A DNA stretch of 64,000 nucleotides from Escherichia coli (GTDB lineage: Bacteria > Pseudomonadota > Gammaproteobacteria > Enterobacterales > Enterobacteriaceae): assembly GCF_003018235.1 (NCBI RefSeq), contig NZ_CP027437.1. One strand, 5' to 3'. A program made the translations under genes and the position numbers. The notes beneath the pieces are model-generated. The model was not told the origin of the DNA. It saw only the letters and a list, made by a program, of their open reading frames with translations, and made no database searches. Below are positions 3,624 through 63,533 of the stretch, in pieces; within the stretch, counting starts at the first letter, position 1; each line of letters starts with the position of its first letter.

Positions 3624-3627
3624 CCCT

Positions 3628-5775: not shown

Positions 5776-5813
5776 TGAACACGCTGCCCGCGCTGTCGGG
5801 CAGCGTTTGAACA

Positions 5814-11251: not shown

Positions 11252-11375
11252 CATTTTTTAACTGTTCTACCAAAATTTGCGCTATCTCAATTTGGGCCAG
11301 GAAAGCATAACTTAGACTTTCAAGGTTAATTATTTTCCTGGTTTATATTTGTGAAGCATAACGGTGGAGTTAGTG

Positions 11376-30280: not shown

Positions 30281-30465
30281 TGTGCACATCCTTTTGGCAT
30301 CAGACGTAAACGAGCCAGCATTGAAACAATGCATATTTTATTTAATAGCTCCCGTTCTTGTTTTCTCTTGTTAATGGCATCTTCAGTAAATACAGGGTTA
30401 CTGATAGTGACACCAATTTCAAAACAACCTTCAGACGTATTAACGTTTGGTAATAACGTTTTCAT
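30277..30465 (-). CDS. dicB: Cell-division inhibitor DicB
   Basis: 62 aa MKTLLPNVNTSEGCFEIGVTISNPVFTEDAINKRKQERELLNKICIVSMLARLRLMPKGCAQ matches my recollection of DicB; located downstream of dicF. Confidence 0.8.
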   Translation of the reverse strand: MKTLLPNVNTSEGCFEIGVTISNPVFTEDAINKRKQERELLNKICIVSMLARLRLMPKGCAQ

Positions 30466-30636
30466 TATCGCGTCCTCAACAATGAATTTTGTGATGCAGT
30501 GCCTGGTGCCTCCAGGTGACGTTAACCAGTTAACAATTAACGCCGGATACAGAGAATCCACCCATAACACTGTTTTTGGTTTTAACTGTTCCGCGTGCGC
30601 TTAGCCGCATTCACCGCATCACAAAACTCACTTTAA

Positions 30637-32872
<2,236 letters not shown>

Positions 32873-32934
32873 TTACCAGATTTAGACATCTGTTTCCGAT
32901 AGCCCGTTCTGATGCTACACTTTTTGCTATTTTC

Positions 32935-33621
32935 ATGAACCTCATAAACACATTTATGACTGTTGCTGATTTCAAACGCCCCAAATTGGAGCTCCCAAAC
33001 GGGGCAAAAAAACTATTACTGCACTCTTGCTGTGCTCCATGTTCCGGTGAAGTGATGGAGGCGCTTCAGGCCTCGGGAATCGACTACACCATCTTTTTCT
33101 ACAACCCGAACATTCATCCTCAGAAAGAGTATTTAATTCGTAAGGATGAGAATATTCGCTTTGCTAAACAACACGGCGTGCCATTTATTGATGCTGATTA
33201 CGACACAGACAACTGGTTTGAGCGAGCCAAAGGAATGGAATGGGAGCCTGAACGAGGGATCCGTTGTACCATGTGTTTTGACATGCGTTTTGAGCGGACT
33301 GCGCTGTATGCCGCTGAAAATGGTTTCAGTGTGATCAGTAGCTCACTGGGCATTTCACGCTGGAAAAATATGCAGCAGGTTAACGACTGTGGACGGCGAG
33401 CCGTCGCGTATTATCCGGGCATGGTGTACTGGGATTATAACTGGCGAAAGCAGGGCGGCTCTTCCCGCATGATTGAAATCAGCAAGCGCGAACAATTCTA
33501 TCAGCAGGAATATTGTGGCTGCGTGTATTCACTGCGCGATACCAATCTACACCGCAAATCTCAGGGACGCCCTCTAATCAAAATTGGTCAACTCCACTAC
33601 GGTAAAGAAGGGCAGGAATGA
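32935..33621 (+). CDS. DUF208 / QueH-like protein (putative epoxyqueuosine reductase)
   Basis: Motif [16 protein letters not shown] near N-terminus plus conserved Cys at CTMC and YCGCVYS; start uncertain (ATG 32935 or 32956, no clear SD; track ORF from 32842). Confidence 0.6.
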
Positions 33622-35206: not shown

Positions 35207-36256
35207 GTGCGGGTATTACTTCGACCTGTTCTGGTACCGGAACTCGGGCTGGTGGTCGTTAAGCCGGGCCGTGAATCCATGCCGGTATTCCACAATACCC
35301 GGGTACTGGTGGAGCCGGAACCGAAAAGCATGCGTAATCTGCCGTCCGGGGTCGTTCCTGCCGTTCGCCAGCCGCTGGTGGAAGACAAAACATTGCTGCC
35401 GTTTTTCAGTAACGCACGGGTAATTCGTGCTGCTGGTGGTGCTGGTGCATTGTCTGACTGGCTGTTGCGCCATATTAAATCCTGCCAGTGGCCACACGGC
35501 GATTATCATCACAGTGAAACCGTTATTCACCGTTATGGTACCGGCGCAATGGTGTTGTGCTGGCACTGCGACAACCAGCTGCGTGACCAGACATCCGAAT
35601 CACTCGAGCAACTTGCTCATCAAAACCTGTCAGCATGGATGATTGACGTCATCGGTCACGCAATAAGCGGTACGCAGGAGCGTGAATTATCTCTGGCTGA
35701 ATTATCCTGGTGGGCGGTCCGCAATCAGGTGGCGGACGCGCTACCGGAAGCGGTATTACGTCGCTCGCTGGGATTACCAGCGGAAAAAAACTGCTCGGTG
35801 TACCGCGAAAGCGACATCGTACCGGGAGAGCAGACCGCCACCAGCATATTGAAACAGCGCACAAAAAATCTTGCACCGTTGCCTCACGCCCACCAGCAAC
35901 AAAACCCATCACAGGAAAAGACGGTGGTAAGCATCACCGTTGATCCAGAGTCTCCGGAATCTTTCATGAAGCTGCCTAAACGTCACCGTTGGGTTAAGGA
36001 GAAATACACACGCTGGGTTAAGACACAGCCGTGTGCTTGCTGCGGTATGCCAGCCGACGATCCGCATCATCTGATTGGTCACGGGCAGGGCGGAATGGGA
36101 ACCAAAGCACATGATCTCTTTGTGTTGCCTTTGTGCAGAAAGCATCACGACGAGCTGCATGCGAATACCGTGGCATTTGAAGAGAAGTATGGCTCCCAGC
36201 TGGAGCTGATATTTCGTTTTATCGATCGTGCGCTGGCAATAGGCGTACTGGCGTAA
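35207..36256 (+). CDS. ydfU: DUF968 prophage protein YdfU with C-terminal HNH-like motif
   Basis: 349 aa from GTG with RBS CTGGAGG; C-terminal CACCGMPADDPHHLIGHGQ...CRKHHDELH resembles HNH/zinc-hook; size and synteny match Qin ydfU. Confidence 0.65.
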   Translation: MRVLLRPVLVPELGLVVVKPGRESMPVFHNTRVLVEPEPKSMRNLPSGVVPAVRQPLVEDKTLLPFFSNARVIRAAGGAGALSDWLLRHIKSCQWPHGDYHHSETVIHRYGTGAMVLCWHCDNQLRDQTSESLEQLAHQNLSAWMIDVIGHAISGTQERELSLAELSWWAVRNQVADALPEAVLRRSLGLPAEKNCSVYRESDIVPGEQTATSILKQRTKNLAPLPHAHQQQNPSQEKTVVSITVDPESPESFMKLPKRHRWVKEKYTRWVKTQPCACCGMPADDPHHLIGHGQGGMGTKAHDLFVLPLCRKHHDELHANTVAFEEKYGSQLELIFRFIDRALAIGVLA

Positions 36257-36269
36257 GTGGAGAACGAGC

Positions 36270-48024: not shown

Positions 48025-49532
48025 TGGCAATTCTTGATGATGTGATTGGCGTTTTTTCACCAGGATGGAAAGCGGCAAGGCTGCGTTCCCGAGCGGTGAT
48101 CCAAGCTTATGAGGCCGTAAAAACGACGCGGACACACAAAGCCCGACGGGAGAACCGAACTGCCGACCAGTTAAGCCAGTACGGGGCCGTGTCGTTACGT
48201 GAGCAGGCCCGTTACCTTGATAACAACCACGATCTGGTCATTGGTGTATCTGACAAGCTGGAAGAACGGGTGGTGGGGAAAAACGGGATTATTGTCGAGC
48301 CACATCCGGTATTACGCAATGGTGCCATTGCCCGTGACCTGGCAGCGGAGATACGTACCCGATGGAGTGAATGGTCTGTCAGTCCGGAAGTCACCGGGCA
48401 GTTTACCCGTCCGATGCTGGAACGTCTGATGCTGCGTACCTGGCTGCGCGATGGTGAGGTGTTTGCCCAGATGGTTTCCGGGCGCATAAACAGCCTGACG
48501 CCTTCTGCCGGTGTTCATTTCTGGCTGGAGGCGCTCGAGCCGGACTTTATTCCCATGACCAGTGATGAGAGCAACAGGCTGAATCAGGGCGTGTTTGTTG
48601 ATGACTGGGGGCGTCCCGAAAAATATCTGGTGTATAAAAGTCGTCCTGTATCCGGACGGCAGATGGAAACCAAAGAAGTGGATGCAGAGCGAATGCTGCA
48701 TCTTAAATTTGTTCGCCGTCTGCACCAGATGCGCGGGACGTCTTTATTGTCCGGTGTGCTGATCCGCCTCAGCGCCCTGAAAGAGTATGAAGATTCTGAG
48801 CTGACTGCAGCAAGGATCGCCGCTGCTCTGGGGATGTACATCCGGAAAGGCGACGGACAGAGCTATGAAACGGATGGTAATGACAGCAAGGAGAATGAAC
48901 GCGAGCTTACCATTCAGCCAGGCATTATTTACGACGATCTGAAACCCGGCGAAGAAATCGGAATGGTGAAGTCGGATCGTCCCAATCCTAACCTTGAAAC
49001 TTTTCGTAATGGTCAGTTGCGTGCCGTGGCGGCGGGCAGTCGTCTGAGTTTTTCCAGTACGGCACGCAACTATAACGGCACTTACAGCGCCCAGCGTCAG
49101 GAACTGGTTGAGTCTACTGATGGCTACCTGATCCTGCAGGACTGGTTTATTGGTGCCGTCACCCGCCCGATGTATCGTGCCTGGCTGAAACAGGCTGTGG
49201 CATCCGGTGTTATCAGGCTACCCCGCGATCTTGACCGTTCTTCACTGTATACCGCGGTGTATTCCGGACCAGTGATGCCGTGGATTGACCCTGTTAAGGA
49301 GGCTGAGGCCTGGAAAATCCAGATTCGTGGTGGAGCGGCGACAGAATCAGACTGGGTACGTGCTGGTGGTCGTAATCCGGATGATGTCAAACGTCGGCGC
49401 AAGGCCGAAATTGATGAAAACCGCAAGCTGGATCTGGTATTTGATACCGATCCGGCCAGTGATAAAGGAGGCAGCAGTGCCGCAACGAAACGACAGGAGC
49501 CGCAGCACACCGACGACCAGTCCGAAGAATAA
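48024..49532 (+). CDS. Portal protein (lambda gpB-like)
   Basis: 502 aa from MAILDDVIGVFSPGWKAARLRSRAVIQAYEAV; track ORF carries an upstream extension overlapping W. Confidence 0.8.
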   Translation: MAILDDVIGVFSPGWKAARLRSRAVIQAYEAVKTTRTHKARRENRTADQLSQYGAVSLREQARYLDNNHDLVIGVSDKLEERVVGKNGIIVEPHPVLRNGAIARDLAAEIRTRWSEWSVSPEVTGQFTRPMLERLMLRTWLRDGEVFAQMVSGRINSLTPSAGVHFWLEALEPDFIPMTSDESNRLNQGVFVDDWGRPEKYLVYKSRPVSGRQMETKEVDAERMLHLKFVRRLHQMRGTSLLSGVLIRLSALKEYEDSELTAARIAAALGMYIRKGDGQSYETDGNDSKENERELTIQPGIIYDDLKPGEEIGMVKSDRPNPNLETFRNGQLRAVAAGSRLSFSSTARNYNGTYSAQRQELVESTDGYLILQDWFIGAVTRPMYRAWLKQAVASGVIRLPRDLDRSSLYTAVYSGPVMPWIDPVKEAEAWKIQIRGGAATESDWVRAGGRNPDDVKRRRKAEIDENRKLDLVFDTDPASDKGGSSAATKRQEPQHTDDQSEE

Positions 49533-49545
49533 TTCCTGGTTCAGG

Positions 49546-51504
49546 ATGCAGGCTGGTCACCAGAGTGACGCGGATATTTATATTTATGACGAGATTGGTT
49601 TCTGGGGTGTTACAGCGAAGCAGTTTATCAGTGATCTGAATGCACTGGGCGATATCACCCACATTAATCTCCATATTAATTCACCGGGTGGCGATGTCTT
49701 TGAAGGCATCGCCATTTTTAATGCGCTGAAAACACATGGTGCGTCCATTACCGTTTATGTCGACGGTGTGGCGGCGTCAATGGCGTCGGTCATTGCGATG
49801 GTGGGAAACCCGGTCATTATGCCGGAAAACACTTTCATGATGATTCATAAACCATTTGGCTTTACGGGCGGTGATGCGGAGGACATGCGCACCTATGCCG
49901 ACCTGCTCGATAAAGTTGAGGCGGTTCTGTTACCCGCTTATGCACAGAAAACCGGGAAAACCACCGATGAAATTGCTGCCATGCTGGCGGATGAGACCTG
50001 GATGTCCGGTGCCGAATGTCTGGCACATGGATTTGCTGATCAGGTAACGCCAGCCGTTAAGGCAATGGCATGTATTCAGTCAAAACGTACAGAGGAATTT
50101 AAAAAGATGCCGGAATCCATTCGAAACATGATTACTCCGCCACGCAACAGTGCTCCACGCGTACAGGATGATGAACCTGCAGCCTCCCGGACGCCAGTGC
50201 AGGCAGCAGCACCCGTGGTGGATGAAAACAGTATCCGTGCGCAGGTACTGGCAGAGCAAAAAGCGCGTGTAAACGGTATTAATGATCTGTTTGCCATGTT
50301 TGGCGGGCGTTATCAGACTCTGCAGGCTCAGTGTCTTGCCGATCCTGAATGTTCGCTGGAGCAGGCCCGCGAAAAGCTGTTGAACGAGATGGGGCGCGAG
50401 TCCACGCCATCCAATAAAAATACCCCGGCTCATATTTATGCCGGTAACGGTAATTTTGTGGGGGACGGGATCCGCCAGGCGCTGATGGCGCGTGCCGGAT
50501 TTGAAAAAACCGAACGTGATAATGTCTACAACGGGATGACCCTGCGTGAATATGCCCGTATGTCACTGACTGAACGGGGTATTGGGGTTTCCAGTTATAA
50601 CCCGATGCAGATGGTCGGTGCGGCGTTCACACACAGTACGTCTGACTTCGGTAATATTCTGCTGGATGTTGCGAACAAAGCCATTCTGCAGGGCTGGGAA
50701 GATGCTCCTGAAACCTATGAACAGTGGACGCGGAAAGGTCAGTTGTCTGATTTTAAAATTGCCCATCGTGTGGGTATGGGGGGCTTCAGTGCTCTGCGTC
50801 AGGTGCGTGAAGGGGCGGAATATAAATACGTCACCACCGGAGATAAACAGGCCACTATTGCACTGGCGACCTATGGCGAGCTGTTCAGTATCACCCGTCA
50901 GGCCATTATCAATGATGATCTGAATATGCTGACCGATGTCCCGATGAAGCTGGGCCGTGCGGCGAAATCCACCATTGCCGATCTGGTTTATGCCATTCTG
51001 ACGTCTAACCCGAAAATCTCCACAGATAATGTAAGTCTGTTCGATAAAGCGAAACATGCAAACGTACTGGAGAGCGCTGCAATGGACGTGGCATCGCTGG
51101 ATAAAGCCCGCCAGTTGATGCGCGTTCAGAAAGAGGGGGAGCGTCATCTGAATATTCGTCCTGCGTTCGTACTGGTACCGACGGCGATGGAGTCTGTTGC
51201 TAACCAGGTCATTCGCTCCTCAAGTGTCAAGGGGGCTGACATTAACGCCGGTATTATTAACCCGGTGAAAGATTTTGCGACCGTTATTGCAGAGCCTCGT
51301 CTTGATGATAACAGCCAGACCACCTTCTACCTGGCTGCGTCCAAAGGCTCCGATACGATTGAAGTGGCTTATCTCAACGGTGTGGATACGCCATATATTG
51401 ATCAGATGGAGGGCTTCAGTGTGGATGGCGTGACAACGAAAGTGCGTATTGACGCCGGTGTCGCGCCAGTTGATCACCGCGGTCTGGTGAAATGTACGGC
51501 GTAA
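49546..51504 (+). CDS. Prohead protease (ClpP/S49-like) - scaffold - HK97-fold major capsid fusion protein
   Basis: 652 aa from MQAGHQSDADIYIYDEIGFWGV; N-terminal ClpP-like domain (INSPGGDVFEGIAIFNAL...ASMASVIAM), Ala/Gln-rich coiled linker, C-terminal ~350-aa capsid domain. Confidence 0.75.
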   Translation: MQAGHQSDADIYIYDEIGFWGVTAKQFISDLNALGDITHINLHINSPGGDVFEGIAIFNALKTHGASITVYVDGVAASMASVIAMVGNPVIMPENTFMMIHKPFGFTGGDAEDMRTYADLLDKVEAVLLPAYAQKTGKTTDEIAAMLADETWMSGAECLAHGFADQVTPAVKAMACIQSKRTEEFKKMPESIRNMITPPRNSAPRVQDDEPAASRTPVQAAAPVVDENSIRAQVLAEQKARVNGINDLFAMFGGRYQTLQAQCLADPECSLEQAREKLLNEMGRESTPSNKNTPAHIYAGNGNFVGDGIRQALMARAGFEKTERDNVYNGMTLREYARMSLTERGIGVSSYNPMQMVGAAFTHSTSDFGNILLDVANKAILQGWEDAPETYEQWTRKGQLSDFKIAHRVGMGGFSALRQVREGAEYKYVTTGDKQATIALATYGELFSITRQAIINDDLNMLTDVPMKLGRAAKSTIADLVYAILTSNPKISTDNVSLFDKAKHANVLESAAMDVASLDKARQLMRVQKEGERHLNIRPAFVLVPTAMESVANQVIRSSSVKGADINAGIINPVKDFATVIAEPRLDDNSQTTFYLAASKGSDTIEVAYLNGVDTPYIDQMEGFSVDGVTTKVRIDAGVAPVDHRGLVKCTA

Positions 51505-51524
51505 ACGTCGCAGACAACAACTCT

Positions 51525-51547
51525 GATGGCCCGTAAGGGCTTTTTTT
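51525..51547 (+). terminator. Possible rho-independent terminator after capsid gene
   Basis: Short hairpin ggccc-gtaa-gggc followed by ttttttt. Confidence 0.4.
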
Positions 51548-51590
51548 GTACCTGAAATCAGCCTCTGAACGGGGCTGTGCGGAGACAGTT

Positions 51591-51914
51591 ATGGCAAAGA
51601 ATTTTGTAGAAGAAGGAAAAACGGTGGCGATTGTTGCCAGTGCAGCCATCAGCAGCGGAGATCTGGTGCAGGTGGGTGATGTTTTTGCGGTGGCGCTGAC
51701 CGATATTCCACAGGGTGAAACAGGCGACGGCATGACCGAAGGTGTGTTTATCCTGCCTAAACTGAAAACGGATGACATGAAAACGGGTAAGAAGGTTTAT
51801 CTGAAGTCCGGAAAAGTTCAGCTGACTAACAGCGGCTCTGATCCGCTGGTCGGGGTTGTCTGGGCAGATGCCGGAACCAGTGCAGAAGAAGTGCCGGTAA
51901 AACTCAATGTCTGA
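51591..51914 (+). CDS. Small head protein (decoration or head-completion protein, unassigned)
   Basis: 107 aa from MAKNFVEEGKTVAIVASAAISSGDLVQVGDVFAVALTDI after RBS GGAG; position directly after capsid gene. Confidence 0.5.
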   Translation: MAKNFVEEGKTVAIVASAAISSGDLVQVGDVFAVALTDIPQGETGDGMTEGVFILPKLKTDDMKTGKKVYLKSGKVQLTNSGSDPLVGVVWADAGTSAEEVPVKLNV

Positions 51915-52182
51915 TCCCTTTTCCCGGCTGGCAGCGCGTATGGATGCGATCACGGTCAGAAAGATGGGAAAGACAGCCTCGATTAATGATGTCGATATGG
52001 CTGTGATCCCGGGCGAAACACTGGCAGAGCTGAATGCTCTGTCCGGACCTGCGGTCTCTCTGGTGGTGTTTTCTTCGGGATACCGCCCACGGCGCGGGGA
52101 TCGCGTTGTTTATGACGGACAACAATGGACGGTCACACGGCATGAACGTTTTAACGGTAAGCCAATGATCTTTATTGAGTAA
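51907..52182 (+). CDS. Head-tail connector / head completion protein (FII-like position)
   Basis: 91-aa ORF overlapping the previous gene by 8 nt, upstream of gpZ homologue. Confidence 0.5.
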   Translation: MSDPFSRLAARMDAITVRKMGKTASINDVDMAVIPGETLAELNALSGPAVSLVVFSSGYRPRRGDRVVYDGQQWTVTRHERFNGKPMIFIE

Positions 52183-52193
52183 AGAGGTGTGGG

Positions 52194-52772
52194 ATGAAGG
52201 GGCTTGAGAATGCCATCCGCAATCTGAACAGCCTTGATACCCGTATGGTGCCACAGGCCAGCGCATGGGCGATAAACCGTGTGGCACAGAAAGCGGTCTC
52301 GGTTGCCACCCGGCAGGTTGCCGGGAATACCGTTGCGGGAGATAACCAGGTGAAAGGGATCCCCCTGAAACTGGTACGTCAGCGTGTCCGGGTGTTTAAA
52401 GCCAGTCCGTCAGGAAAAATGACGGCCAGGATCCGCGTTAACCGGGGCAATCTGCCCGCCATTAAGCTGGGGACAGCCCGGGTCAGACTGGCCCGGCGTG
52501 GTGGAAAACTGCAGTACCGTGGCAGTGTGCTGAAGGTGGGTAAATATCTTTTCCGGGATGCGTTTATTCAGCAACTGGCGAATGGTCGCTGGCATGTGAT
52601 GCGGCGTATTGATGGCAAAAATCGTTACCCCATTGATGTGGTGAAAATCCCGCTGTCCGGACCGCTGACACAGGCATTTGAAGATGCCCGCGACCACATC
52701 ATTGCTGCGGAAATGCCGAAACAGCTGGGGTATGCACTGAAACAACAACTGAGGTTATGGCTGACCCGATGA
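52194..52772 (+). CDS. Minor tail protein Z (lambda gpZ-like)
   Basis: 192 aa, same length and position as lambda Z; RBS GAGGTG. Confidence 0.7.
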   Translation: MKGLENAIRNLNSLDTRMVPQASAWAINRVAQKAVSVATRQVAGNTVAGDNQVKGIPLKLVRQRVRVFKASPSGKMTARIRVNRGNLPAIKLGTARVRLARRGGKLQYRGSVLKVGKYLFRDAFIQQLANGRWHVMRRIDGKNRYPIDVVKIPLSGPLTQAFEDARDHIIAAEMPKQLGYALKQQLRLWLTR

Positions 52773-53170
52773 ACCGGCATACACAAATCCGCCAGGCCGT
52801 ACTGGCACGCCTTCGGGAACAGTGTGGAGACAGCGCCACGTTTTTTGACGGGCTTCCGGCATTTATTGATGTGCAGGAACTGCCTGCCGTGGCGGTGTGG
52901 CTGAGTGATGCTCAGTACACCGGAAAAATGACGGATGAAGATGACTGGCAGGCTGTTCTGCATATTGCCGTCTTCATCCGGGCACAGGCACCGGATTCAG
53001 AGCTGGATATGTGGATGGAGAGCACCATTTTCCCTGCCCTGAATGATATACCGGCACTTTCCGGACTCATCGACACCCTGATCCCACTCGGTTTTAACTA
53101 TCAACGTGATAATGAGATGGCCACCTGGGCGATGGCGGAAATCACGTACCAGATCACGTACACGAATTAA
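52757..53170 (+). CDS. Tail terminator protein U (lambda gpU-like)
   Basis: 137 aa, overlaps Z stop, precedes major tail gene. Confidence 0.7.
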   Translation: MADPMNRHTQIRQAVLARLREQCGDSATFFDGLPAFIDVQELPAVAVWLSDAQYTGKMTDEDDWQAVLHIAVFIRAQAPDSELDMWMESTIFPALNDIPALSGLIDTLIPLGFNYQRDNEMATWAMAEITYQITYTN

Positions 53171-53180: not shown

Positions 53181-53924
53181 ATGACCACACCAAATCCACT
53201 GGCAAAGACGAAAGGTGCGGGGACGACGTTCTGGATGTATACCGGCAACGGCGATGCGTTTGCGAACCCTTTGTCGGACACTGACTGGCTGCGTCTTGCG
53301 ATGGTGAAGGATCTGCAACCTGGCGAAATGACCGCTGATGCAGAAGATGACACTTATCTCGATGATGAAGATGCAGACTGGAAAACGACAACCCAGGGGC
53401 AGAAATCCGTTGGTGATACTTCGGCGACGCTGGCCTGGCGTCCGGGTGACAGCGGGCAGAAAAAACTGGTTCAGTTGTTCGACTCCGGTGAAGTCTGCGC
53501 GTTTCGTATCAAATATCCCAACGGCACTGTTGATGTTTTCCGTGCCTGGCTGAGCTCACTGGGTAAAACCATTGCCTCAAAAGACGTGATGACCCGCACT
53601 GTGAAAATCAGCGGTGTGGGGCGTCCGTATCTGGCAGAGGAAGGCACTGAAACCGTGAGCGTTACCGGGCTGACAGTATCACCGGCGTCTGCCAGTGTAA
53701 AAGTGGGAGCAACCACCACGCTGACCTTTACAGTAAAACCTGACGGAGCCAGTGACAAAGCGATCAGTGTGCATTCGTCAGATCCACAGACTGCCACGGT
53801 TACCCTGAACGGACTTGTGGCCACGGTAAAAGGCGTGAAGCAGGGCAGTGTCAGCATTGTGGGCATGACCGCTGACGGGAATTTTGTGGCTGTGACTGCG
53901 GTGACTGTCAGCGCAGCAGGTTAA
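53181..53924 (+). CDS. Major tail protein V with C-terminal Ig-like (Big_2-type) domain
   Basis: 247 aa from MTTPNPLAKTKGAGTTFWMY after RBS AAGGAGGTGG; C-terminal beta-rich repeat VSVTGLTVSPASASVKVGATTTLTFTVKPDGASDKAISVHSSDPQTATVT. Confidence 0.8.
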   Translation: MTTPNPLAKTKGAGTTFWMYTGNGDAFANPLSDTDWLRLAMVKDLQPGEMTADAEDDTYLDDEDADWKTTTQGQKSVGDTSATLAWRPGDSGQKKLVQLFDSGEVCAFRIKYPNGTVDVFRAWLSSLGKTIASKDVMTRTVKISGVGRPYLAEEGTETVSVTGLTVSPASASVKVGATTTLTFTVKPDGASDKAISVHSSDPQTATVTLNGLVATVKGVKQGSVSIVGMTADGNFVAVTAVTVSAAG

Positions 53925-53981: not shown

Positions 53982-54371
53982 ATGATGTTTCTGAAACAGG
54001 ACACGTTTAATTATGAAAAACAGTCCGTGGTGCTCAGTGAGCTGTCCGGGCTGCAGAGAATTGAATATCTGACGTTTGTTCAGCAGCGAACGGCAAAGTT
54101 TGATGCCGGGGAGGGAGAACTGCCGGAGGCTGAACGACAGATTGCTTTTCTGCGGATGGGGATGGATATCAATGCCTGGCTGGTTTCCCGCTCACTGTGG
54201 AATGCGGATCAGTCTAAGGATGTAGAGACGCTTTGCGCATCCGTTATTACAACATGGTCGTATGATGCCCTGGGTGCGGGGGCGGAGATGGTTCTGTCGC
54301 TGAGCGGTATGGGGGCCATTGATAATGCCGTGGATGATGAGCATGAGGCGCTGACGCCGGAAAAGTCCTGA
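53982..54371 (+). CDS. Tail assembly chaperone G (lambda gpG-like)
   Basis: 129 aa from MMFLKQDTFNYEK after RBS GGTGGAG; followed by -1 frame T ORF. Confidence 0.75.
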   Translation: MMFLKQDTFNYEKQSVVLSELSGLQRIEYLTFVQQRTAKFDAGEGELPEAERQIAFLRMGMDINAWLVSRSLWNADQSKDVETLCASVITTWSYDALGAGAEMVLSLSGMGAIDNAVDDEHEALTPEKS

Positions 54372-54709
54372 CGCGGGAAATGCAGTTTGTCATGCGGCTT
54401 GCCCGGGAGTTCCGGCGGGCAGACTGGCGGCGGATGCTGTCGGAAATGTCGGCCACTGAGCTTGGTGAGTGGGGCGATTATTTCCGGATGCAGAGCTTCA
54501 GTGATGTGTGGATGGATGCGCAGTTTGCCTCGCTGAAGGCATTGATCGTGATAATGGTGTCCGGCAGCAGTGATGCTGCGGTGGCTGATTTCAGCCTTTT
54601 ACCGGAAGAGAACGGGATACCGGAGCGAACGGACGAAGAACTGATGCATCTTGGGGAAGGTATTTCCGGAGGTGTGCGTTATGGAGCAGATAGCCAACCT
54701 GGTCATTGA
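54359..54709 (+). CDS. Tail assembly chaperone T portion, expressed as G-T fusion by programmed -1 frameshift
   Basis: T frame is -1 relative to G and is open only from 54347 (three stop codons at 54335-54346); candidate slippery heptamer G_GAA_AAG at 54359-54365, just before G stop. Confidence 0.65.
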   Translation, partial: GKVLTREMQFVMRLAREFRRADWRRMLSEMSATELGEWGDYFRMQSFSDVWMDAQFASLKALIVIMVSGSSDAAVADFSLLPEENGIPERTDEELMHLGEGISGGVRYGADSQPGH

Positions 54710-57700
54710 TTTGGGGATTGATGCGGCAGAGTTTAAAAATGAAATTCCCCGTATCAAAAACCTTCTGAATGGTGCAGCCAGCGATGCAGAACGGTCTTCT
54801 GCCCGTATGCAGCGTTTTATGGAGCGTCAGACTCAGGCCGCCCGGCAGACAACGCAGGCAGCTTCTTCGGCTGCAACAGCCGCATCCGTCCATGCGCAGA
54901 CGGTGGAGAAGAACGCACAGGCTCATGAACGCATGGCCCGCGAGGTGGAGAAAACCCGCCAGCGCATGGAGGCACTGAGCCAGAAAATGCGCGAGGAACA
55001 GGCGCAGGCCATGGCTCTGGCGGAGGCTCAGGATAAAGCGGCTGCTGCGTTTTATCGTCAGATTGACAGTGTGAAACAGGCCAGTGCGGGGCTGCAGGAA
55101 TTACAGCGTATTCAGCAGCAGATCCGACAGGCCAGAAACAGTGGCGGGATTGGTCAGCAGGATTATCTGGCGCTGATTTCTGAGGTTACTGCGAAAACCC
55201 GTGTTCTTACACAGGCTGAGGAAGAGGCTACCCGACAGAAAGTGGCGTTTATCCGTCAGCTTAAAGAGCAGGCAACCCGCCTGAATCTTTCATCTTCTGA
55301 GTTGCTTCGTGCTAAGGCAGCCCAGCTGGGGGTAAGCAGTGCTGCAGAAGTGTATATCCGCAAAATGGAGCATGCAGGAAAAGCCACGCATTCGCTGGGT
55401 CTGAAAAGTGCATCAGCCCGCCAGGAGATAGGCGTTCTGATAGGTGAACTGGCCCGCGGCAATTTAGGGGCGCTGAGGGGATCCGGGATAACGCTGGCTA
55501 ACCGTGCCGGATGGATAGACACACTGATGTCACCGAAAGGCATGATGCTTGGCGGGGTTATTGGCGGTATTGCCGCGGCCGTCTATGGTCTGGGTAAAGC
55601 CTGGTATGACGGTCAGAAGGAGGGGGAAGAATTTAACCGCCAGTTGTCGCTGACGGGGCATTATGCCGGAGTCACTGCCGGGCAGCTGTGGACGCTCAGT
55701 CGTGCTATTTCCGGGAATGGTATCACGCAACATGCTGCAGCCGGTGCGCTGGCTCAGGTGGTGGGGAGTGGTGCATTTCGTGGAAACGATATCGGTATGG
55801 TGGCGAGAGCTGCCGCACAGATGGAGCGATCGGTTGGCCAGTCGGTCAGCGATACCATAAATCAGTTTAAGCGGCTGAAGGATGATCCTGTAAATGCCGC
55901 GAAGGCTCTGGACAATGAGCTGCATTTTCTTACTGCCACTCAGCTTGAGCAGATACGCGTCCTTGGGGAGCAGGGGCGGTCCAGTGATGCTGCACGGATA
56001 GCCATGTCTGCACTGGCAGAGGAAACCGGTCGGCGTACTGCGGATATTGATAATAACCTCAATGCGCTTGGCAGTACGCTGAAGTATCTGTCTGATTTGT
56101 GGAGTCGTTTCTGGGATGCGGCCATGAATATTGGTCGTGAAGACTCGCTGGATGAACAGATTGCCGCTTTACAGGAGAAAGTGTCGCGGGCGAAAAGACT
56201 CCCCTGGACGGCATCATCTTCTCAGGTTGAATACGATCAGCAGCGTCTTAACGATCTTCAGGAGAAAAAACGCCAGAAGGATTTGCAGGATGCAAAAGAG
56301 CAGGCAGAGCGGAATTATCAGGAGCAACAGAAACGCCGTAATGCTGAAAATGCTGCACTGAACCGGATGAATGAAACGGAAGCAGCACGACATCAGCGTG
56401 AAATTGCGCGTATTAATGCCATGCAGTACGCCGATCAGGCTGTCAGGGATGCGGCGATACAACGTGAAAATGAACGTTACGAGAAAGCCCTGGCATCCGG
56501 TAAGAAAAAAACACGCGAAACCCGTAATGATGAGGCCACCCGGTTATTGCTGCAGTACAGTCAGCAACAGGCACAGGTGGAAGGACAGATTGCTGCTGCC
56601 AGACAGTCAGTAGGCATTGCCACGGAAAGGATGACAGAAGCGCATAAACAGCTTCTGGCTCTGCAGCAGCGCATCAGCGACCTAGACGGGAAAAAACTTA
56701 CGGCAGATGAAAAGAGTGTGCTGGCCCGTAAAGATGAACTGATTCAGGCACTGACGCTGCTGGATGTAAAACAGCAGGAGCTTCAGAAACAGACGGCACT
56801 CAACGAGCTGAAGAAAAAAACAATTCAGCTGACCAGTCAACTGGCTGAAGAAGAGCGCGCTCAGCGTCAGCAACATGACCTGGATATCGCCACGGTGGGT
56901 ATGGGTGATCAGCAGCGACAGCGATATCAGGTACAACTGAGTCTTCGCCAGAAATACCAGCAACAGCTGGAGCAGTTGAGGCGGGATAGTGAGCAGAAAG
57001 GGACATATAACACGGATGACTACAGAAAGGCCGAGCAGGCGCTGACGGAGAGCCTGAACCGACAACTGAATGAGAATCGCCGTTACTGGCAACAGCTTGA
57101 AGTTGTGCAGGGTAACTGGAAAAACGGAGTCCTGCGTGCATTTCAGGATTTTACCGTGGATGCAGATAATACGGCAGAAACAGCAGAACAGGTGTTCTCG
57201 TCAGCCTTCAGCAACATGGGAAATGGCCTGGCAACTTTTGTCACTACCGGCAAACTCAATTTCAAATCCTTCACCTCTTCTGTGCTGTCAGATATGGCGA
57301 AAATCCTGGCGCAGGCAACCATGATGAAATCGATAAAAGGGATTGGCAGTGTACTGGGATTTGATCTCAGCAGCCTTTCCCTGAATGCCAATGGGGGGAT
57401 TTATCAGTCTGCTGATTTGAGTCGTTACAGTGGCACGGTGGTTAACCGTCCGACGTTTTTTGCTTTTGCAAAAGGCGCGGGTGTGATGGGGGAAGCGGGA
57501 CCTGAAGCCATTCTGCCATTGCGTCGTGGTGCTGACGGTAAGCTGGGGGTTGTGGCGGATATTGGGGGTTCAGGTATGGCGATGTTTTCCCCGCAGTACA
57601 ACATCGAGATCAATAACGATGGCACGAACGGGCAGATAGGTCCGGCTGCCCTGAAGGCGGTTTATGACCTCGGGAAAAAAGCGGCAGCGGACTTTATGCA

Positions 57701-57746
57701 ACAGCAGGCCCGTGATGGTGGTCGGTTAAGTGGAGCATATCGGTAA
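54681..57746 (+). CDS. Tail tape measure protein (lambda gpH-like)
   Basis: 1021 aa from MEQIANLVIDLGIDAAEF after RBS GGAGGTG; long coiled-coil Gln/Ala/Arg-rich central region, Gly-rich C-terminal part. Confidence 0.85.
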   Translation: MEQIANLVIDLGIDAAEFKNEIPRIKNLLNGAASDAERSSARMQRFMERQTQAARQTTQAASSAATAASVHAQTVEKNAQAHERMAREVEKTRQRMEALSQKMREEQAQAMALAEAQDKAAAAFYRQIDSVKQASAGLQELQRIQQQIRQARNSGGIGQQDYLALISEVTAKTRVLTQAEEEATRQKVAFIRQLKEQATRLNLSSSELLRAKAAQLGVSSAAEVYIRKMEHAGKATHSLGLKSASARQEIGVLIGELARGNLGALRGSGITLANRAGWIDTLMSPKGMMLGGVIGGIAAAVYGLGKAWYDGQKEGEEFNRQLSLTGHYAGVTAGQLWTLSRAISGNGITQHAAAGALAQVVGSGAFRGNDIGMVARAAAQMERSVGQSVSDTINQFKRLKDDPVNAAKALDNELHFLTATQLEQIRVLGEQGRSSDAARIAMSALAEETGRRTADIDNNLNALGSTLKYLSDLWSRFWDAAMNIGREDSLDEQIAALQEKVSRAKRLPWTASSSQVEYDQQRLNDLQEKKRQKDLQDAKEQAERNYQEQQKRRNAENAALNRMNETEAARHQREIARINAMQYADQAVRDAAIQRENERYEKALASGKKKTRETRNDEATRLLLQYSQQQAQVEGQIAAARQSVGIATERMTEAHKQLLALQQRISDLDGKKLTADEKSVLARKDELIQALTLLDVKQQELQKQTALNELKKKTIQLTSQLAEEERAQRQQHDLDIATVGMGDQQRQRYQVQLSLRQKYQQQLEQLRRDSEQKGTYNTDDYRKAEQALTESLNRQLNENRRYWQQLEVVQGNWKNGVLRAFQDFTVDADNTAETAEQVFSSAFSNMGNGLATFVTTGKLNFKSFTSSVLSDMAKILAQATMMKSIKGIGSVLGFDLSSLSLNANGGIYQSADLSRYSGTVVNRPTFFAFAKGAGVMGEAGPEAILPLRRGADGKLGVVADIGGSGMAMFSPQYNIEINNDGTNGQIGPAALKAVYDLGKKAAADFMQQQARDGGRLSGAYR

Positions 57747-58075
57747 TGGAGACGTTTCACTGGAAAGTGCGCCCGGATATGAATGTGGTATCAGAGCCGA
57801 AAGTGGTGACAGTGAAGCTGGGCGATGGTTATGAACAGCGTCGTGCGGCGGGACTGAATAACCAGTTGTCGACTTACAGCGTGACGATACGTGTTCGTAA
57901 ATGTGAACACCCATCTTTAAAAGCCTTTCTGGAACGGCACGGTGGCGTCCGTGCATTTCAGTGGACGCCACCTTATGACTGGAAACCGATCAGGGTGGTT
58001 TGTCGTAAATGGTCGGCAAGCGTGGGGGCGCTGTGGGTAACCATAACGGCAGATTTTGAACAGGTCGTGGCATAG
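57746..58075 (+). CDS. Minor tail protein M (lambda gpM-like)
   Basis: 109 aa, same length as lambda M; start overlaps H stop. Confidence 0.8.
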   Translation: METFHWKVRPDMNVVSEPKVVTVKLGDGYEQRRAAGLNNQLSTYSVTIRVRKCEHPSLKAFLERHGGVRAFQWTPPYDWKPIRVVCRKWSASVGALWVTITADFEQVVA

Positions 58076-58084
58076 GAGGCTCTG

Positions 58085-58783
58085 ATGCAGGATATTCCAC
58101 AGGAAACACATCATGAGACGACACGCCTCACTCAGTCAGCCCAGGTGGTGCTATGGGAAATCGATCTGGCAGAGGTCGGTGGTGAACGTTATTTTTTCTG
58201 TAATGAGCAGAACGAAAAAGGTGAGCCGGTTATCTGGCAGGGGCGGCAGTATCAGGTATACCCCATTCAGGGGACGGGATTTGAACTGAACGGCAAGGGC
58301 AGTGCTGCCCGTCCGACACTGACGGTTTCTAACCTGCACGGCATGGTCACCGGGATGGCGGAAGACCTGCAGAGTCTGGTCGGAGGAACGGTGGTCCGGC
58401 GTAAGGTTTACGCCCGTTTTCTGGATGCGGTGAACTTCGTCAACGGAAACAGTGACGCCGATCCGGAGCAGGAGGTGATCAGCCGCTGGCGCATCGAGCA
58501 GTGCAGCGAACTGAGCGCGGTGAGTGCCTCTTTTGTACTGTCCACGCCGACGGAAACGGACGGTGCCGTTTTTCCGGGACGTATCATGCTGGCCAACACC
58601 TGCACCTGGACCTATCGCGGTGATGAGTGCGGTTATCACGGTCCGGCGGTCGCGGATGAATATGATCAGCCGACGTCCGATATCACGAAGGATAAATGCA
58701 GCAAATGCCTGAGCGGCTGTAAGTTTCGCAATAACGTCGGCAACTTTGGCGGCTTCCTTTCCATTAACAAACTTTCGCAGTGA
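58085..58783 (+). CDS. Minor tail protein L (lambda gpL-like)
   Basis: 232 aa, same length as lambda L; C-terminal Cys cluster CSKCLSGCKF. Confidence 0.8.
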   Translation: MQDIPQETHHETTRLTQSAQVVLWEIDLAEVGGERYFFCNEQNEKGEPVIWQGRQYQVYPIQGTGFELNGKGSAARPTLTVSNLHGMVTGMAEDLQSLVGGTVVRRKVYARFLDAVNFVNGNSDADPEQEVISRWRIEQCSELSAVSASFVLSTPTETDGAVFPGRIMLANTCTWTYRGDECGYHGPAVADEYDQPTSDITKDKCSKCLSGCKFRNNVGNFGGFLSINKLSQ

Positions 58784-59532
58784 ATCCCATGACAGAGACA
58801 GAATCAGCGATTCTGGCGCACGCCCGGCGATGTGCGCCAGCGGAGTCGTGCGGCTTCGTGGTGAGAACACCGGAGGGGGAAAAATATTTTCCCTGCGTGA
58901 ATATCTCCGGTGAGCCGGAGGAGTATTTCCGGATGTCGCCGGAGGACTGGCTGCGGGCAGAGATGCAGGGTGAGATTGTGGCGCTGGTCCACAGCCACCC
59001 CGGTGGTCTGCCCTGGCTGAGTGAGACCGACCGGCGGCTGCAGGTGCAGAGTGATTTGCCGTGGTGGCTGGTTTGCCGGGGGGCGATTCACAAGTTCCGC
59101 TGTGTGCCACATCTTTCCGGGCGGCGCTTTGAGCACGGGGTGACGGACTGTTACACGCTGTTCCGGGATGCTTACCATCTGGCGGGGATTGAGATGCCGG
59201 ATTTTCATCGCGAGGATGACTGGTGGCGTAACGGTCAGAATCTCTATCTGGATAATCTGGAGGCCACAGGGCTGTATCAGGTGCCGTTGTCAGCGGCGCA
59301 GCCGGGCGATGTGCTGCTGTGCTGTTTTGGTTCATCGGTGCCGAATCATGCCGCCATTTACTGTGGTGACAGCGAGCTGCTGCACCATATTCCTGAACAA
59401 CTGAGCAAACGAGAGAGGTACACCGACAAATGGCAGCGACGCACACACTCCCTCTGGCGTCACCGGGCATGGCACGCATCTGCCTTTACGGGGATTTACA
59501 ACGATTTGGCCGCCGCATCGACCTTCGAGTGA
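58780..59532 (+). CDS. Tail assembly protein K (JAMM/Mov34 + NlpC/P60 domains)
   Basis: 250 aa; JAMM motif VHSHPGG and NlpC/P60-like Cys-His region; overlaps L stop. Confidence 0.8.
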   Translation: MNPMTETESAILAHARRCAPAESCGFVVRTPEGEKYFPCVNISGEPEEYFRMSPEDWLRAEMQGEIVALVHSHPGGLPWLSETDRRLQVQSDLPWWLVCRGAIHKFRCVPHLSGRRFEHGVTDCYTLFRDAYHLAGIEMPDFHREDDWWRNGQNLYLDNLEATGLYQVPLSAAQPGDVLLCCFGSSVPNHAAIYCGDSELLHHIPEQLSKRERYTDKWQRRTHSLWRHRAWHASAFTGIYNDLAAASTFE

Positions 59533-60077
59533 AAACGGGGTCCGAAGCCATCCGGGCGCTGGCCATGCAGATCCCGGCGTTTCGTCAGAAACTGAGCGAC
59601 GGCTGGTACCAGGTACGCATTGCCGGGCGTGATGCAGGTGAAACCGAATTGTCTGCCCGTCTTAATGAGCCGCTGGCAAATGGTGCCGTGATCCACATCG
59701 TGCCGCGTCTGGCGGGAGCTAAAAGTGGCGGTGTGTTTCAGGTGGTGCTGGGGGCGGCGCTGATTGCGGTGGCATGGTGGAACCCTGTGGGCTGGCTGGG
59801 TGCCGCGGCTGTATCGGGCATGTATGCGGCAGGGGCCAGTATGATCCTGGGCGGAGTGGCGCAGATGCTGGCACCGAAAGCCAGGACGCCCACGGCAGCA
59901 AGTACAGATAACGGCAAACAGAACACCTATTTCTCCTCACTGGATAACATGGTTGCCCAGGGCAATGTTCTGCCCGTTCTGTACGGTGAAATGCGCGTGG
60001 GGTCGCGGGTGGTCTCTCAGGAGATCAGCACGGCAGACGAAGGGGATGGTGGTCAGGTTGTGGTGATTGGTCGCTGA
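59430..60077 (+). CDS. Tail assembly protein I (lambda gpI-like)
   Basis: 215 aa MAATHTLPLASPGMARICLYGDLQRFGRRIDLRVK...; overlaps 3' end of K in another frame. Confidence 0.75.
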   Translation: MAATHTLPLASPGMARICLYGDLQRFGRRIDLRVKTGSEAIRALAMQIPAFRQKLSDGWYQVRIAGRDAGETELSARLNEPLANGAVIHIVPRLAGAKSGGVFQVVLGAALIAVAWWNPVGWLGAAAVSGMYAAGASMILGGVAQMLAPKARTPTAASTDNGKQNTYFSSLDNMVAQGNVLPVLYGEMRVGSRVVSQEISTADEGDGGQVVVIGR

Positions 60078-60137
60078 TGAAAAACGTTTTATGTGAAACC
60101 GCCTCCGGGCGGTTTTGTCGTTTATGGAGCGTGAGGA

Positions 60138-63100
60138 ATGGGTAAAGGCAGCAGTAAGGGGCATACTCCGCGCGAAGCGAAGGACAACCTGAAGTCCACG
60201 CAGTTGCTGAGTGTGATCGATGCCATCAGCGAAGGGCCGGTTGAAGGTCCGGTGGACGGATTAAAAAGCGTGCTGCTGAACAGTACGCCAGTGCTGGACA
60301 CTGAGGGGAATACCAACATCTCCGGCGTCACGGTGGTGTTCCGGGCCGGTGAGCAGGAGCAGACTCCGCCGGAGGGGTTTGAATCCTCCGGTTCCGAGAC
60401 GGTGCTGGGTACGGAAGTGAAATATGACACGCCGATCACCCGCACCATCACGTCGGCAAACATCGACCGTCTGCGCTTTACCTTCGGTGTGCAGGCACTG
60501 GTGGAAACCACCTCAAAGGGGGACAGGAATCCATCGGAAGTCCGCCTGCTGGTTCAGATACAGCGTAACGGTGGCTGGGTGACGGAAAAAGACATCACCA
60601 TTAAGGGCAAAACCACCTCGCAGTATCTGGCCTCGGTGGTGGTGGATAACCTGCCGCCGCGCCCGTTTAATATCCGGATGCGCAGGATGACGCCGGACAG
60701 CACCACAGACCAGCTGCAGAACAAAACGCTCTGGTCGTCATACACCGAAATTATCGATGTGAAACAGTGCTACCCGAACACGGCACTGGTCGGCGTGCAG
60801 GTGGACTCGGAGCAGTTCGGCAGCCAGCAGGTGAGCCGTAATTATCATCTGCGCGGGCGTATTCTGCAGGTGCCGTCGAACTATAACCCGCAGACGCGGC
60901 AATACAGCGGTATCTGGGACGGAACGTTTAAACCGGCATACAGCAACAACATGGCCTGGTGTCTGTGGGATATGCTGACCCACCCGCGCTACGGCATGGG
61001 GAAACGTCTTGGTGCGGCGGATGTGGATAAATGGGCGCTGTATGTCATCGGCCAGAATTGCGACCAGTCGGTGCCGGACGGCTTTGGCGGCACGGAGCCG
61101 CGCATCACCTGTAATGCCTGGCTGACCACACAGCGCAAGGCGTGGGATGTGCTCAGTGATTTCTGCTCGGCGATGCGCTGTATGCCGGTATGGAACGGGC
61201 AGACGCTGACGTTCGTGCAGGACCGGCCATCGGATAAGGTGTGGACCTATAACCGCAGTAATGTGGTGATGCCGGATGATGGCGCGCCGTTCCGCTACAG
61301 CTTCAGCGCCCTGAAGGACCGCCATAATGCCGTTGAGGTGAACTGGATTGACCCGAACAACGGCTGGGAGACGGCGACAGAGCTTGTTGAAGATACGCAG
61401 GCCATTGCCCGTTACGGTCGTAATGTCACGAAGATGGATGCCTTTGGTTGTACCAGTCGGGGGCAGGCACACCGCGCCGGGCTGTGGCTGATTAAAACGG
61501 AGCTGCTGGAGACGCAGACCGTGGACTTCAGCGTGGGCGCAGAAGGGCTTCGCCATGTACCGGGCGATGTCATTGAAATCTGCGATGATGACTATGCGGG
61601 GATCAGCATCGGCGGGCGCGTGCTGGCGGTGAACAGCCAGACCCGGACGCTGACGCTCGACCGTGAAATCACGCTGCCATCCTCCGGTACCACGCTGATA
61701 AGCCTGGTTGACGGAAGTGGCAATCCGGTCAGCGTGGAGGTCCAGTCCGTCACCGACGGCGTGAAGGTGAAAGTGAGCCGTGTTCCTGACGGCGTTGCAG
61801 AATACAGCGTGTGGGGGCTGAAGTTGCCGACGTTGCGCCAGCGCCTGTTCCGCTGTGTGAGTATCCGTGAGAACGATGACGGCACGTATGCCATCACTGC
61901 CGTGCAGCATGTACCGGAAAAAGAGGCCATCGTGGATAACGGGGCGCACTTTGACGGCGACCAGAGCGGCACGGTGAATGGTGTCACGCCGCCAGCGGTG
62001 CAGCACCTGACCGCCGAAGTCACCGCAGACAGCGGGGAATATCAGGTGCTGGCGCGCTGGGACACGCCGAAGGTGGTGAAGGGCGTGAGCTTCCTGCTCC
62101 GTCTGACCGTAACAGCGGATGACGGCAGTGAGCGGCTGGTCAGCACGGCCCTGACGACGGAAACCACATACCGCTTCAGGCAACTGGCGCTGGGGCGTTA
62201 CACGCTGACGGTCCGGGCGGTAAATGCGTGGGGACAGCAGGGCGATCCGGCATCGGTATCGTTCCGGATTGCCGCACCGGCTGCGCCGTCGCGGATTGAG
62301 CTGACGCCGGGCTATTTTCAGATAACCGCCACGCCGCATCTTGCGGTTTATGATCCGACGGTACAGTTTGAGTTCTGGTTCTCGGAAACGCGGATTACCG
62401 ATATCAGGCAGGTTGAAACCACAGCCCGCTACCTTGGCACGGGGCTGTACTGGATAGCCGCCAGTATCAATATCAAACCGGGCCATGATTATTACTTTTA
62501 TATCCGCAGTGTGAACATCGTTGGCAAATCGGCATTCGTGGAGTCCGTCGGTCGGGCGAGCGATGATGCGGAAGGTTACCTGGATTTTTTCAAAGGCAAG
62601 ATAACCGAATCCCATCTCGGCAAGGAGCTGCTGGAAAAAGTCGATCTGACGGAGGATAACGCCAGCAGACTGGATGAGTTTTCGAAAGAGTGGAAGGATG
62701 CCAACGATAAATGGAATGCCATGTGGGCTGTCAAAATTGAGCAGACCAAAGACGGCAAACATTATGTCGCGGGTATTGGCCTCAGTATGGAGGACACGGA
62801 GGAAGGCAAACTGAGCCAGTTTCTGGTTGCCGCTAACCGTATCGCGTTTATTGACCCGGCAAACGGGAATGAAACGCCGATGTTTGTGGCGCAGGGCAAT
62901 CAGATATTCATGAACGACGTGTTCCTGAAACGCCTGACGGCCCCCACCATTACCAGTGGTGGAAATCCACCGGCATTTTCCCTGACACCGGATGGGCGGC
63001 TGACGGCGAAAAATGCCGATATCAGCGGTAACGTGAATGCGAACTCCGGGACGCTCAACAACGTCACGATTAACGAGAACTGTCGGGTTCTGGGAAAACT

Positions 63101-63533
63101 GTCCGCGAACCAGATTGAAGGCGATCTCGTTAAAACAGTGGGCAAAGCTTTCCCCCGGGACTCCCGTGCACCGGAACGGTGGCCATCAGGGACCATTACC
63201 GTCAGGGTTTATGACGATCAGCCGTTTGACCGGCAGATTGTTATTCCGGCGGTGGCATTCAGCGGCGCTAAACATGAGAGAGAGCATACTGATATTTACT
63301 CCTCATGCCGTCTGATAGTGCGGAAAAACGGTGCTGAAATTTATAACCGTACCGCGCTGGATAATACGCTGATTTACAGTGGCGTTATTGATATGCCTGC
63401 CGGTCACGGTCACATGACGCTGGAGTTTTCGGTGTCAGCATGGCTGGTAAATGACTGGTATCCCACAGCAAGTATCAGCGATTTGCTGGTTGTGGTGATG
63501 AAGAAAGCCACCGCAGGCATCAGTATCAGCTGA
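60138..63533 (+). CDS. Host specificity / central tail fibre protein J
   Basis: 1131 aa (lambda J is about the same length); RBS GAGGAATG; fibronectin-III-like central repeats. Confidence 0.85.

Follow-up and report, generated by a model that had tools for sequence, protein, structure and literature searches.

The window, a stretch of 64,000 nucleotides from the Escherichia coli contig NZ_CP027437.1 (assembly GCF_003018235.1), carries at positions 54681-57746 on the plus strand an intact tape measure gene, a homologue of lambda H encoding 1021 aa (open reading frame and translation). The gene lies downstream of the tube protein gene, between the G/G-T pair and the gpM homologue, within a complete lambda-type tail module whose order Z-U-V-G/T-H-M-L-K-I-J was read from Pfam domains and by comparison with phage mEp460. 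The surrounding features are:

30846..32800, plus strand: IS100 (IS21 family) in place of the prophage immunity/replication region (Pfam rve/HTH, IstB)
45198..52182, plus strand: terminase, portal, fused ClpP-protease/capsid gene and head-tail genes (Gifsy-2-type head module), intact (tblastn and RefSeq)
52194..53170, plus strand: Z and U homologues (tail completion, tail terminator; Pfam Phage_tail_U; 97.8-99.5% identity to mEp460 Z and U)
53181..53924, plus strand: major tail tube protein, lambda V homologue, 247 aa (Pfam Phage_TTP_12 and Big_2; 95.5% to mEp460 V)
53982..54371, plus strand: tail assembly chaperone G (Pfam Phage_TAC_2, E=5e-40; 97.7% to mEp460 G)
54380..54709, plus strand: T part of the G-T frameshift chaperone (Pfam Phage_tail_T; 98.2% to mEp460 T)
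57746..63533, plus strand: tail tip genes M, L, K, I and J (Pfam; all full length compared with mEp460)

The head and tail genes of the window are intact from terS to J (18/18). Head-module proteins are 94-100% identical to those of mEp460, full length and gapless by tblastn, and a near-identical locus is annotated in RefSeq; the tail tip genes encode Phage_min_tail, Phage_tail_L, JAB plus NlpC/P60, Lambda_tail_I and gpJ domains. Relative to G, T is read in the -1 frame, which is open from 54347; the sequence shows a candidate slippage site (G GAA AAG at 54359-54365), and a G-T fusion would be made by frameshifting if the pair behaves like lambda G/GT.

The tape measure reading frame starts at ATG 54681, which follows a GGAGG at 54668-54672 with a spacer of 8 nt, and its stop codon ends at 57746. 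We preferred this codon over TTG 54651 because of its ribosome-binding site and because the equivalent ATG is the annotated start of near-identical copies in GenBank (mEp460) and RefSeq; TTG 54651, which would give the longest ORF (1031 aa), has no comparable ribosome-binding site and was rejected. The 1021-aa protein matches the Pfam families TMP_2 (E=1.8e-49, 168.7 bits) and Tape_meas_lam_C (E=4.7e-22, 78.3 bits), both well over cut-offs, as well as TMP_4 (E=6.8e-17). Lambda H (NC_001416 10542-13103, 853 aa, the length also given in PMC12617516) aligns co-linearly by BLASTP with E=2e-50, and phmmer matched the lambda gpH chain 8iyk_H in the PDB with E=4.8e-49. Judged by these matches, the homology to lambda gpH is far above chance and clearly identifies the protein as a tape measure; that it is a lambda-family tape measure of the same kind as that of mEp460 is near certain. 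The first-pass annotation had put the protein at about 20% longer than the ~853 aa of lambda H, and this is confirmed by a length ratio of 1.197 (19.7%).

Within the protein, the following parts were delimited:

54807..55280, plus strand: extra N-proximal block (about residues 43-200), missing from lambda H (alignment A1)
55362..55958, plus strand: TMP_2 domain (residues 228-426; Pfam PF06791, E=1.8e-49)
55539..55619, plus strand: Gly/Ala-rich hydrophobic segment (residues 287-313), counterpart of lambda gpH 116-140
57111..57335, plus strand: Tape_meas_lam_C domain (residues 811-885; Pfam PF09718, E=4.7e-22)
57636..57728, plus strand: C-terminal helix (residues 986-1016; phmmer match to PDB 9e7m_Ha, E=1.8e-5)

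Lambda gpH (PDB 8IYK chain H) belongs to the same family, has the same neighbour genes and, at about 25% identity, shares this architecture of an N-terminal segment, TMP_2, a hydrophobic segment, a long middle predicted to be helical, Tape_meas_lam_C and a C-terminal tip-binding helix. The hydrophobic segment, whose lambda counterpart is treated in PMC12617516, gives a Kyte-Doolittle peak at residues 287-305 (lambda 113-136), and it is here that BLASTP pairs residue 289 with lambda residue 122. At the other end, BLASTP finds the lambda C-terminus INNDGTNGQIGPAALKAVYD nearly identical to the C-terminal helix region of our protein. Residues 986-1016 correspond to lambda gpH 818-849, which binds gpI in the tail tip (PMC12617516, PMC10721106), and are predicted to form a gpI-docking helix; a gpI homologue is also encoded. 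In an AlphaFold2 model of low confidence (mean pLDDT 50), DSSP assigns nearly all of the chain up to residue 886 to helix, and the 1021 residues include only 9 prolines, none of which falls between residues 24 and 284. In alignment A1, which comprises six proteins, the Gly-rich region close to where H would be cleaved to H* is longer in lambda than in our protein.

Nearly all of the additional 168 aa over lambda H form a single block, as the lambda gap in alignment A1 falls at about residues 43-200. By BLASTP, residues 289-1021 (733 aa) are co-linear with lambda 122-853 (732 aa), and the N-termini can be aligned too (2-56 with 3-57); Pfam domains are offset relative to lambda by +174 at the start of TMP_2 and by +184 at Tape_meas_lam_C. 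Lambda gpH thus lacks about 160 aa here and carries, after the block position, a short insert of ~23 aa. The block contains no proline and four glycines and is rich in A, Q, R and E. DSSP of the low-confidence AlphaFold2 model gives helices at residues 15-153 and 159-201, separated by the glycine cluster NSGGIG (residues 154-158). Because it is a single proline-free stretch predicted to be helical, the block appears ruler-like rather than a globular add-on, and Pfam gave no match there to an enzymatic domain or to a globular domain of any other kind. That the block arose by recent duplication of the protein's own coiled middle was considered and rejected (best self-similarity E=1.2, and a marginal match to lambda H with E=0.05).

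Neither the gene and its annotation nor the ruler principle is new. Copies in the isolated phages mEp460_ev081, mEp460, Ayreon and Tritos, whose records label the gene tape measure, are 3066 bp each and align without gaps at 98.5-99.7% DNA identity (99.7% for mEp460_ev081 and 98.5% for Ayreon). The mEp460 tape measure gp13 (AFM76050.1) is likewise 1021 aa long, with 98.3% amino acid identity, no gaps and the same G/T and M neighbours. From this group, which takes in mEp460_ev081, Ayreon, Tritos, cdtI and PhiR47_1, the window copy differs by point substitutions only; unlike theirs, it belongs to a chromosomal prophage of the Qin type, whose early region IS100 has disrupted. A copy at ≥80% coverage occurs in 1,825 of 5,426 complete E. 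coli genomes, about one third.

The block itself was found by tblastn in 37 phage records, including phi80, Gifsy-1/2, Fels-1 and mEp043/213, and also in Aeromonas pAEv1818. In phi80 (AFV29155.1, 1045 aa), Gifsy-1/2, Fels-1 and mEp043/mEp213 it is 47-68% identical over about 150 aa (E 1e-20 to 4e-36), within tape measures of 975-1086 aa that are 31-63% identical overall; individual carriers measure 995 aa (Gifsy-2), 1086 aa (mEp043) and 975 aa (pAEv1818). The segment before the C-terminal helix is of the GEAGPEAILPL type in our protein and in Gifsy-2 and of the GKYEPAGIVHRGEFVF type in lambda and phi80, and both phi80 and mEp043 have lambda-type C-terminal segments. Since phi80, Gifsy-1/2, Fels-1 and mEp043 have the same block, lambda is, by sequence comparison, the short form within its own tape-measure family and not the norm. 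The protein in the window is a standard lambda-family tape measure of the long-N-terminus subtype, found in mEp460/cdtI/Ayreon phages and more distantly in phi80, Gifsy-1/2 and Fels-1.

The tape measure gene belongs to a Qin-type lambdoid prophage at the rspB/ydfJ locus. The rspB|int junction is reproduced in the window, which is 98.4-99.5% identical to RefSeq loci carrying dicB, hokD, ydfU, Q (ydfT), cspB/F/I, essD and rrrQ/rzpQ, and Pfam recovered integrase, DicB, Hok and QueH within it; its Q gene lies at 36270-37022. The right prophage junction (tfaQ, pinQ, ydfJ) lies past the window end. Where comparator prophages have 3.78 kb with ydfA, a dicA-like repressor, cro/dicC, ydaT, an O-like gene and DUF977, the window has an IS100 that matches the copy of this element in strain STEC299 at 99.2% identity across 1955 bp and whose istA has a nonsense codon at 31743-31745. 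Searches with blastn and tblastn gave no matches to those immunity/replication genes anywhere in the window, and the functional immunity/replication region that an inducible prophage requires is therefore absent from it. Because IS100 replaced the repressor, cro and replication genes, particle production is doubtful; the window copy by itself is unlikely, on its gene content, to be induced or to make particles, and would be a poor source of them. The earlier proviso that a longer tail would follow only if the particle is assembled therefore carries more weight than had been supposed, although all late genes are intact.

To translate protein length into tail length, we drew on systems in which both are available. 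Lambda tails change in length when H carries deletions or duplications, and loss of 114 aa from the TM4 tape measure makes that tail ~20 nm shorter (PMC1796659); a value of 1.5 A per residue is cited in PMC8624392. By cryo-EM, the lambda tube has 31 discs spanning 132.7 nm (PMC12617516) or, in an alternative count, 32 rings (PMC10721106). The tape measure of phage T1, gp38 (PDB 9L9P chain B, 957 aa), is homologous over residues 88-894 (E=8e-29) and likewise has a longer N-terminal region than lambda gpH, but T1 differs in being a virulent phage of distant sequence with another tube protein that has disulfide links. Its tube, by cryo-EM, has about 34 rings with a rise of 42 A. Together, lambda and T1 give a calibration of 26.7-28.1 aa per tube ring, although from lambda to T1 an additional 104 aa is accompanied by only 2-3 more rings, somewhat below proportional. 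At the ~27-28 aa per ring of lambda and T1, a ruler of 1021 aa should therefore produce a predicted tail tube of about 36-38 rings, or roughly 153-160 nm, versus 31-32 rings and 133 nm in lambda.

The only EM tail length that we found in the literature for a phage with this 1021-aa tape measure comes from the Ayreon genome announcement, which gives a tail of 'about 120 nm' as a rough figure, stated without particle number or calibration. This is shorter than lambda and contradicts the longer-tail prediction. The phi458 paper shows EM but does not state a tail length, the mEp460_ev081 paper contains no EM, the Lula 2010 paper offers no data on tails, and the FhuA-phage and Tai papers contain nothing on phi80 tail length. 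Youderian's thesis, as discussed by Katsura and Hendrix in 1984, reportedly describes phi80 tails longer than those of lambda, with the determinant in gene H. The first-pass proposal that this phage, if assembled, would have a longer tail than lambda is thus upheld in part: it follows the ruler rule, and the proline-free, predicted helical block and the lambda/T1 calibration agree with it, but the Ayreon figure does not.

If assembly proceeds as in lambda, several copies of the tape measure, largely alpha-helical by prediction, would be held extended by the G and G-T chaperones, with their C-terminal helices anchored in a tip complex of the gpI/L/M/J homologues. The V homologue would then polymerise around the tape measure until its N-terminal end is reached, whereupon the U homologue would cap the tube. 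The extra block, predicted to be helical, may in this way add tube rings, and both its ruler function and the number of rings are to be read as predictions. We consider the reading as a whole, a long-N-terminus lambda-family tape measure with the longer-tail prediction included, to be probably correct.

An alternative that we regard as unlikely is that the block does not count as ruler length, being folded back as a hairpin, removed, projected into the neck or used otherwise (for example in channel formation or interaction with a host factor during DNA injection), so that tails would be about as long as in lambda or shorter. The reported Ayreon tail, with a tape measure of identical length, would fit such a block; the glycine cluster breaks the block into two predicted helices that could fold back at the confidence of the AlphaFold2 model; tape measures also act after assembly, in injection (PMC12617516, PMC10721106); and the ring increment from lambda to T1 is less than proportional. 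Nevertheless, the whole-protein lengths of lambda and T1 both give 27-28 aa per ring, and the extra residues of T1 compared with lambda are also N-terminal to the hydrophobic segment, yet its rings are more numerous. The block, moreover, has neither proline nor a recognisable globular domain, and the Ayreon figure is below even lambda and is therefore more likely imprecise than informative. The broader proposition that the tail ruler leaves the block uncounted in mEp460, phi80 and Gifsy tape measures alike, as the Ayreon tail would suggest, seems to us improbable. A reading of the gene as a pseudogene in decay, left over in a cryptic prophage and with a length of no functional significance, would accord with the loss of the immunity and replication region to IS100 and with Qin of K-12, a known cryptic remnant at the same locus (PMC12529663), but is hardly credible for an uninterrupted ORF that has exactly the length found in viable phages, is gapless at 98.3% amino acid identity and stands among late genes that are all full length.

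On the preferred reading, in which the block serves as ruler length, a single discrete block, predicted to be helical, separates lambda from its relatives and lets the ruler rule be tested cleanly on natural variants, with a predicted gain of 5-6 rings. The only tail length published for the mEp460-type group misfits that rule and deserves re-measurement. Should the ruler prove to ignore the block, tail length would no longer follow tape-measure length in a group of E. coli phages that is very common, and the block would serve some other function, for example in genome injection.

Both the position and the length assigned to the tape measure gene in the first-pass annotation were borne out, and the features considered here are as follows:

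54681-57746, + strand: tape measure gene (lambda H homologue), ATG at 54681, stop ending at 57746, 1021 aa
Residues 228-426 of the tape measure: TMP_2 (Pfam, E=1.8e-49)
Residues 616-693 of the tape measure: TMP_4 (Pfam)
Residues 811-885 of the tape measure: Tape_meas_lam_C (Pfam, E=4.7e-22)
54807-55280 (~residues 43-200): N-proximal extra block, from a six-protein alignment

A GGAGG motif lies upstream of the ATG (54668-54672), and the stop codon shares one base with the ATG of the next gene. Lambda H has 853 aa (10542-13103 in NC_001416; PMC12617516 gives the same length), and the protein is thus 19.7% longer, in agreement with the ~20% noted at first. It matched lambda H at E=2e-50 with 25% identity (BLASTP) and the lambda gpH chain of PDB 8IYK at E=4.8e-49 (phmmer), and by Pfam its gene is preceded by homologues of lambda Z, U, V, G and T and followed by M, L, K, I and J. 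The gene is already known and very common. Ungapped matches over the full 3066 bp, all annotated as tape measure, were found in mEp460_ev081 (99.7% DNA identity), mEp460 (98.8%), Ayreon and Tritos (98.5%) and the cdtI phage (96%), while 1,825 of 5,426 complete E. coli genomes have a copy (at least 80% of the gene covered), named 'phage tail tape measure protein' in RefSeq. A separate 238-bp match, 98.7% identical to window 56415-56652 (tape measure nt 1735-1972), lies unannotated at the extreme end of the 254-kb record of Aeromonas jumbo phage AP1 (MT713136.1, 251326-251563), which suggests misassembly or contamination of that record, or a recent transfer.

Residues 289-1021 (733 aa) are co-linear with lambda 122-853 (732 aa), and the N-termini also pair (lambda 2-56 with 3-57 in the BLASTP alignment). 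TMP_2 starts at residue 228 versus 54 in lambda, and Tape_meas_lam_C at 811 versus 627. Taken together with the lambda gap at ~residues 43-200 in the alignment of six proteins, these offsets place essentially all of the additional 168 aa in a single N-proximal block. The block lacks proline and has four Gly residues, while Ala, Gln, Arg and Glu are abundant in it; a Pfam search gave no domain, and the remainder of the protein shows no significant similarity to it. DSSP on a low-confidence AlphaFold2 model (mean pLDDT 50) assigned helices at 15-153 and 159-201, with NSGGIG as the sole break. Beyond it, the hydrophobic segment at 287-305 is the counterpart of lambda 113-136, and the C-terminal helix is nearly identical to the gpI-docking helix of lambda.

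The N-proximal block is shared by phi80 (tape measure of 1045 aa), Gifsy-1, Gifsy-2 (995 aa), Fels-1, mEp043/mEp213 (1086 aa) and one Aeromonas phage (975 aa). By these alignments the 1021-aa gene is therefore not unusually long; within this wider family it is lambda that is short. In the mEp043 tape measure (3249-6509 of its sequence, 1086 aa), the block is combined with a lambda-type segment of ~23 aa (AQFTDIATSIAGG...) and an additional insert of ~45 aa, so that the N-terminal third of the family has several independent length variants. The C-terminal region is mosaic (window ~57340-57600, residues ~890-960): Gifsy-2 shares the NRPTFFAFAKGAGVMGEAGPEAILPLRRG segment of the 1021-aa protein, whereas lambda, phi80, mEp043 and pAEv1818 have GGKYEPAGIVHRGEFVFTKE in its place, and the last helix is lambda-like again.

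The first reading had also proposed a longer tail than that of lambda. The underlying ruler rule is well established: duplications and deletions in lambda H lengthen and shorten tails, and removal of 114 aa from the TM4 tape measure gives a tail ~20 nm shorter (PMC1796659); a commonly used ruler value is 1.5 Å per residue (PMC8624392). Lambda has 31 gpV discs over 132.7 nm with its 853-aa tape measure (PMC12617516; 32 rings in another study), and T1 has ~34 rings with a rise of 42 Å and a 957-aa tape measure (PDB 9L9P chain B), which is homologous to the 1021-aa protein (E=8e-29) and likewise has its surplus over lambda N-terminal to the hydrophobic segment. The two phages give 26.7-28.1 aa per ring, so that phages with a 1021-aa tape measure would be expected to have ~36-38 rings (~5-6 above lambda) and a tube of ~153-160 nm. 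However, the only direct tail length found for a phage with exactly this tape measure length is that of Ayreon, whose genome announcement describes 'long flexible tails (+/-120 nm)'. This value is shorter than lambda and fits no version of the ruler rule, and although we regard it as imprecise, it leaves the longer tail only partly supported: a reasonable textbook inference, refined here by the position of the block and a predicted ring number.

From the small terminase to J, all 18 of 18 genes are full length relative to the viable phage mEp460 (89-100% amino acid identity; 94-100% and ungapped for every gene but J, which has 16 gapped positions), and the late region is thus intact. At 49546-51504 the head module departs from lambda: it is Gifsy-2-like, a single fused gene encoding both the ClpP-type prohead protease and the major capsid protein, whereas the tail module attached to it is of lambda type. 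T is read in the -1 frame with respect to G, and this frame is open from 54347, with the G stop at 54369-54371; in GenBank and RefSeq, G and T each have their own gene annotation. A candidate slip site, G GAA AAG, lies at 54359-54365 (within 54347-54380), in contrast to the canonical G GGA AAG of lambda.

The tape measure gene belongs to a full-length prophage related to the cryptic Qin of K-12. This prophage is inserted beside rspB, and its genes include int, xis, exo, dicB, queH, hokD, ydfU, Q, cold-shock and lysis genes. A low-GC stretch at 36000-46000 (36-46% GC versus ~52% in its flanks) holds the Qin-type accessory genes that lie between Q and the terminase (cspF, cspB, ynfU, lysis genes, cspI, ymcF, ynfN and gnsB), as judged from an alignment with the annotated locus of W12-1. 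Between dicB and queH, comparator prophages have a 3.78-kb immunity/replication region, replaced here by an insertion sequence:

30846-32800 (context 30277-33621): complete IS100 (IS21 family), 1955 bp

The istA of this element is interrupted by a nonsense codon (TGG to TGA, 31743-31745); its istB is intact. The genes of the replaced region (ydfA, a dicA-like repressor, cro/dicC, ydaT, an O-like replication gene and DUF977) left no trace anywhere else in the window. With the repressor, early promoter region and replication genes missing, normal induction and Q-dependent late expression appear doubtful, and the prophage is probably non-inducible despite its intact late genes. mEp460, Ayreon and Tritos, isolated phages with this same tape measure, are therefore better material for electron microscopy of tails than the prophage itself.
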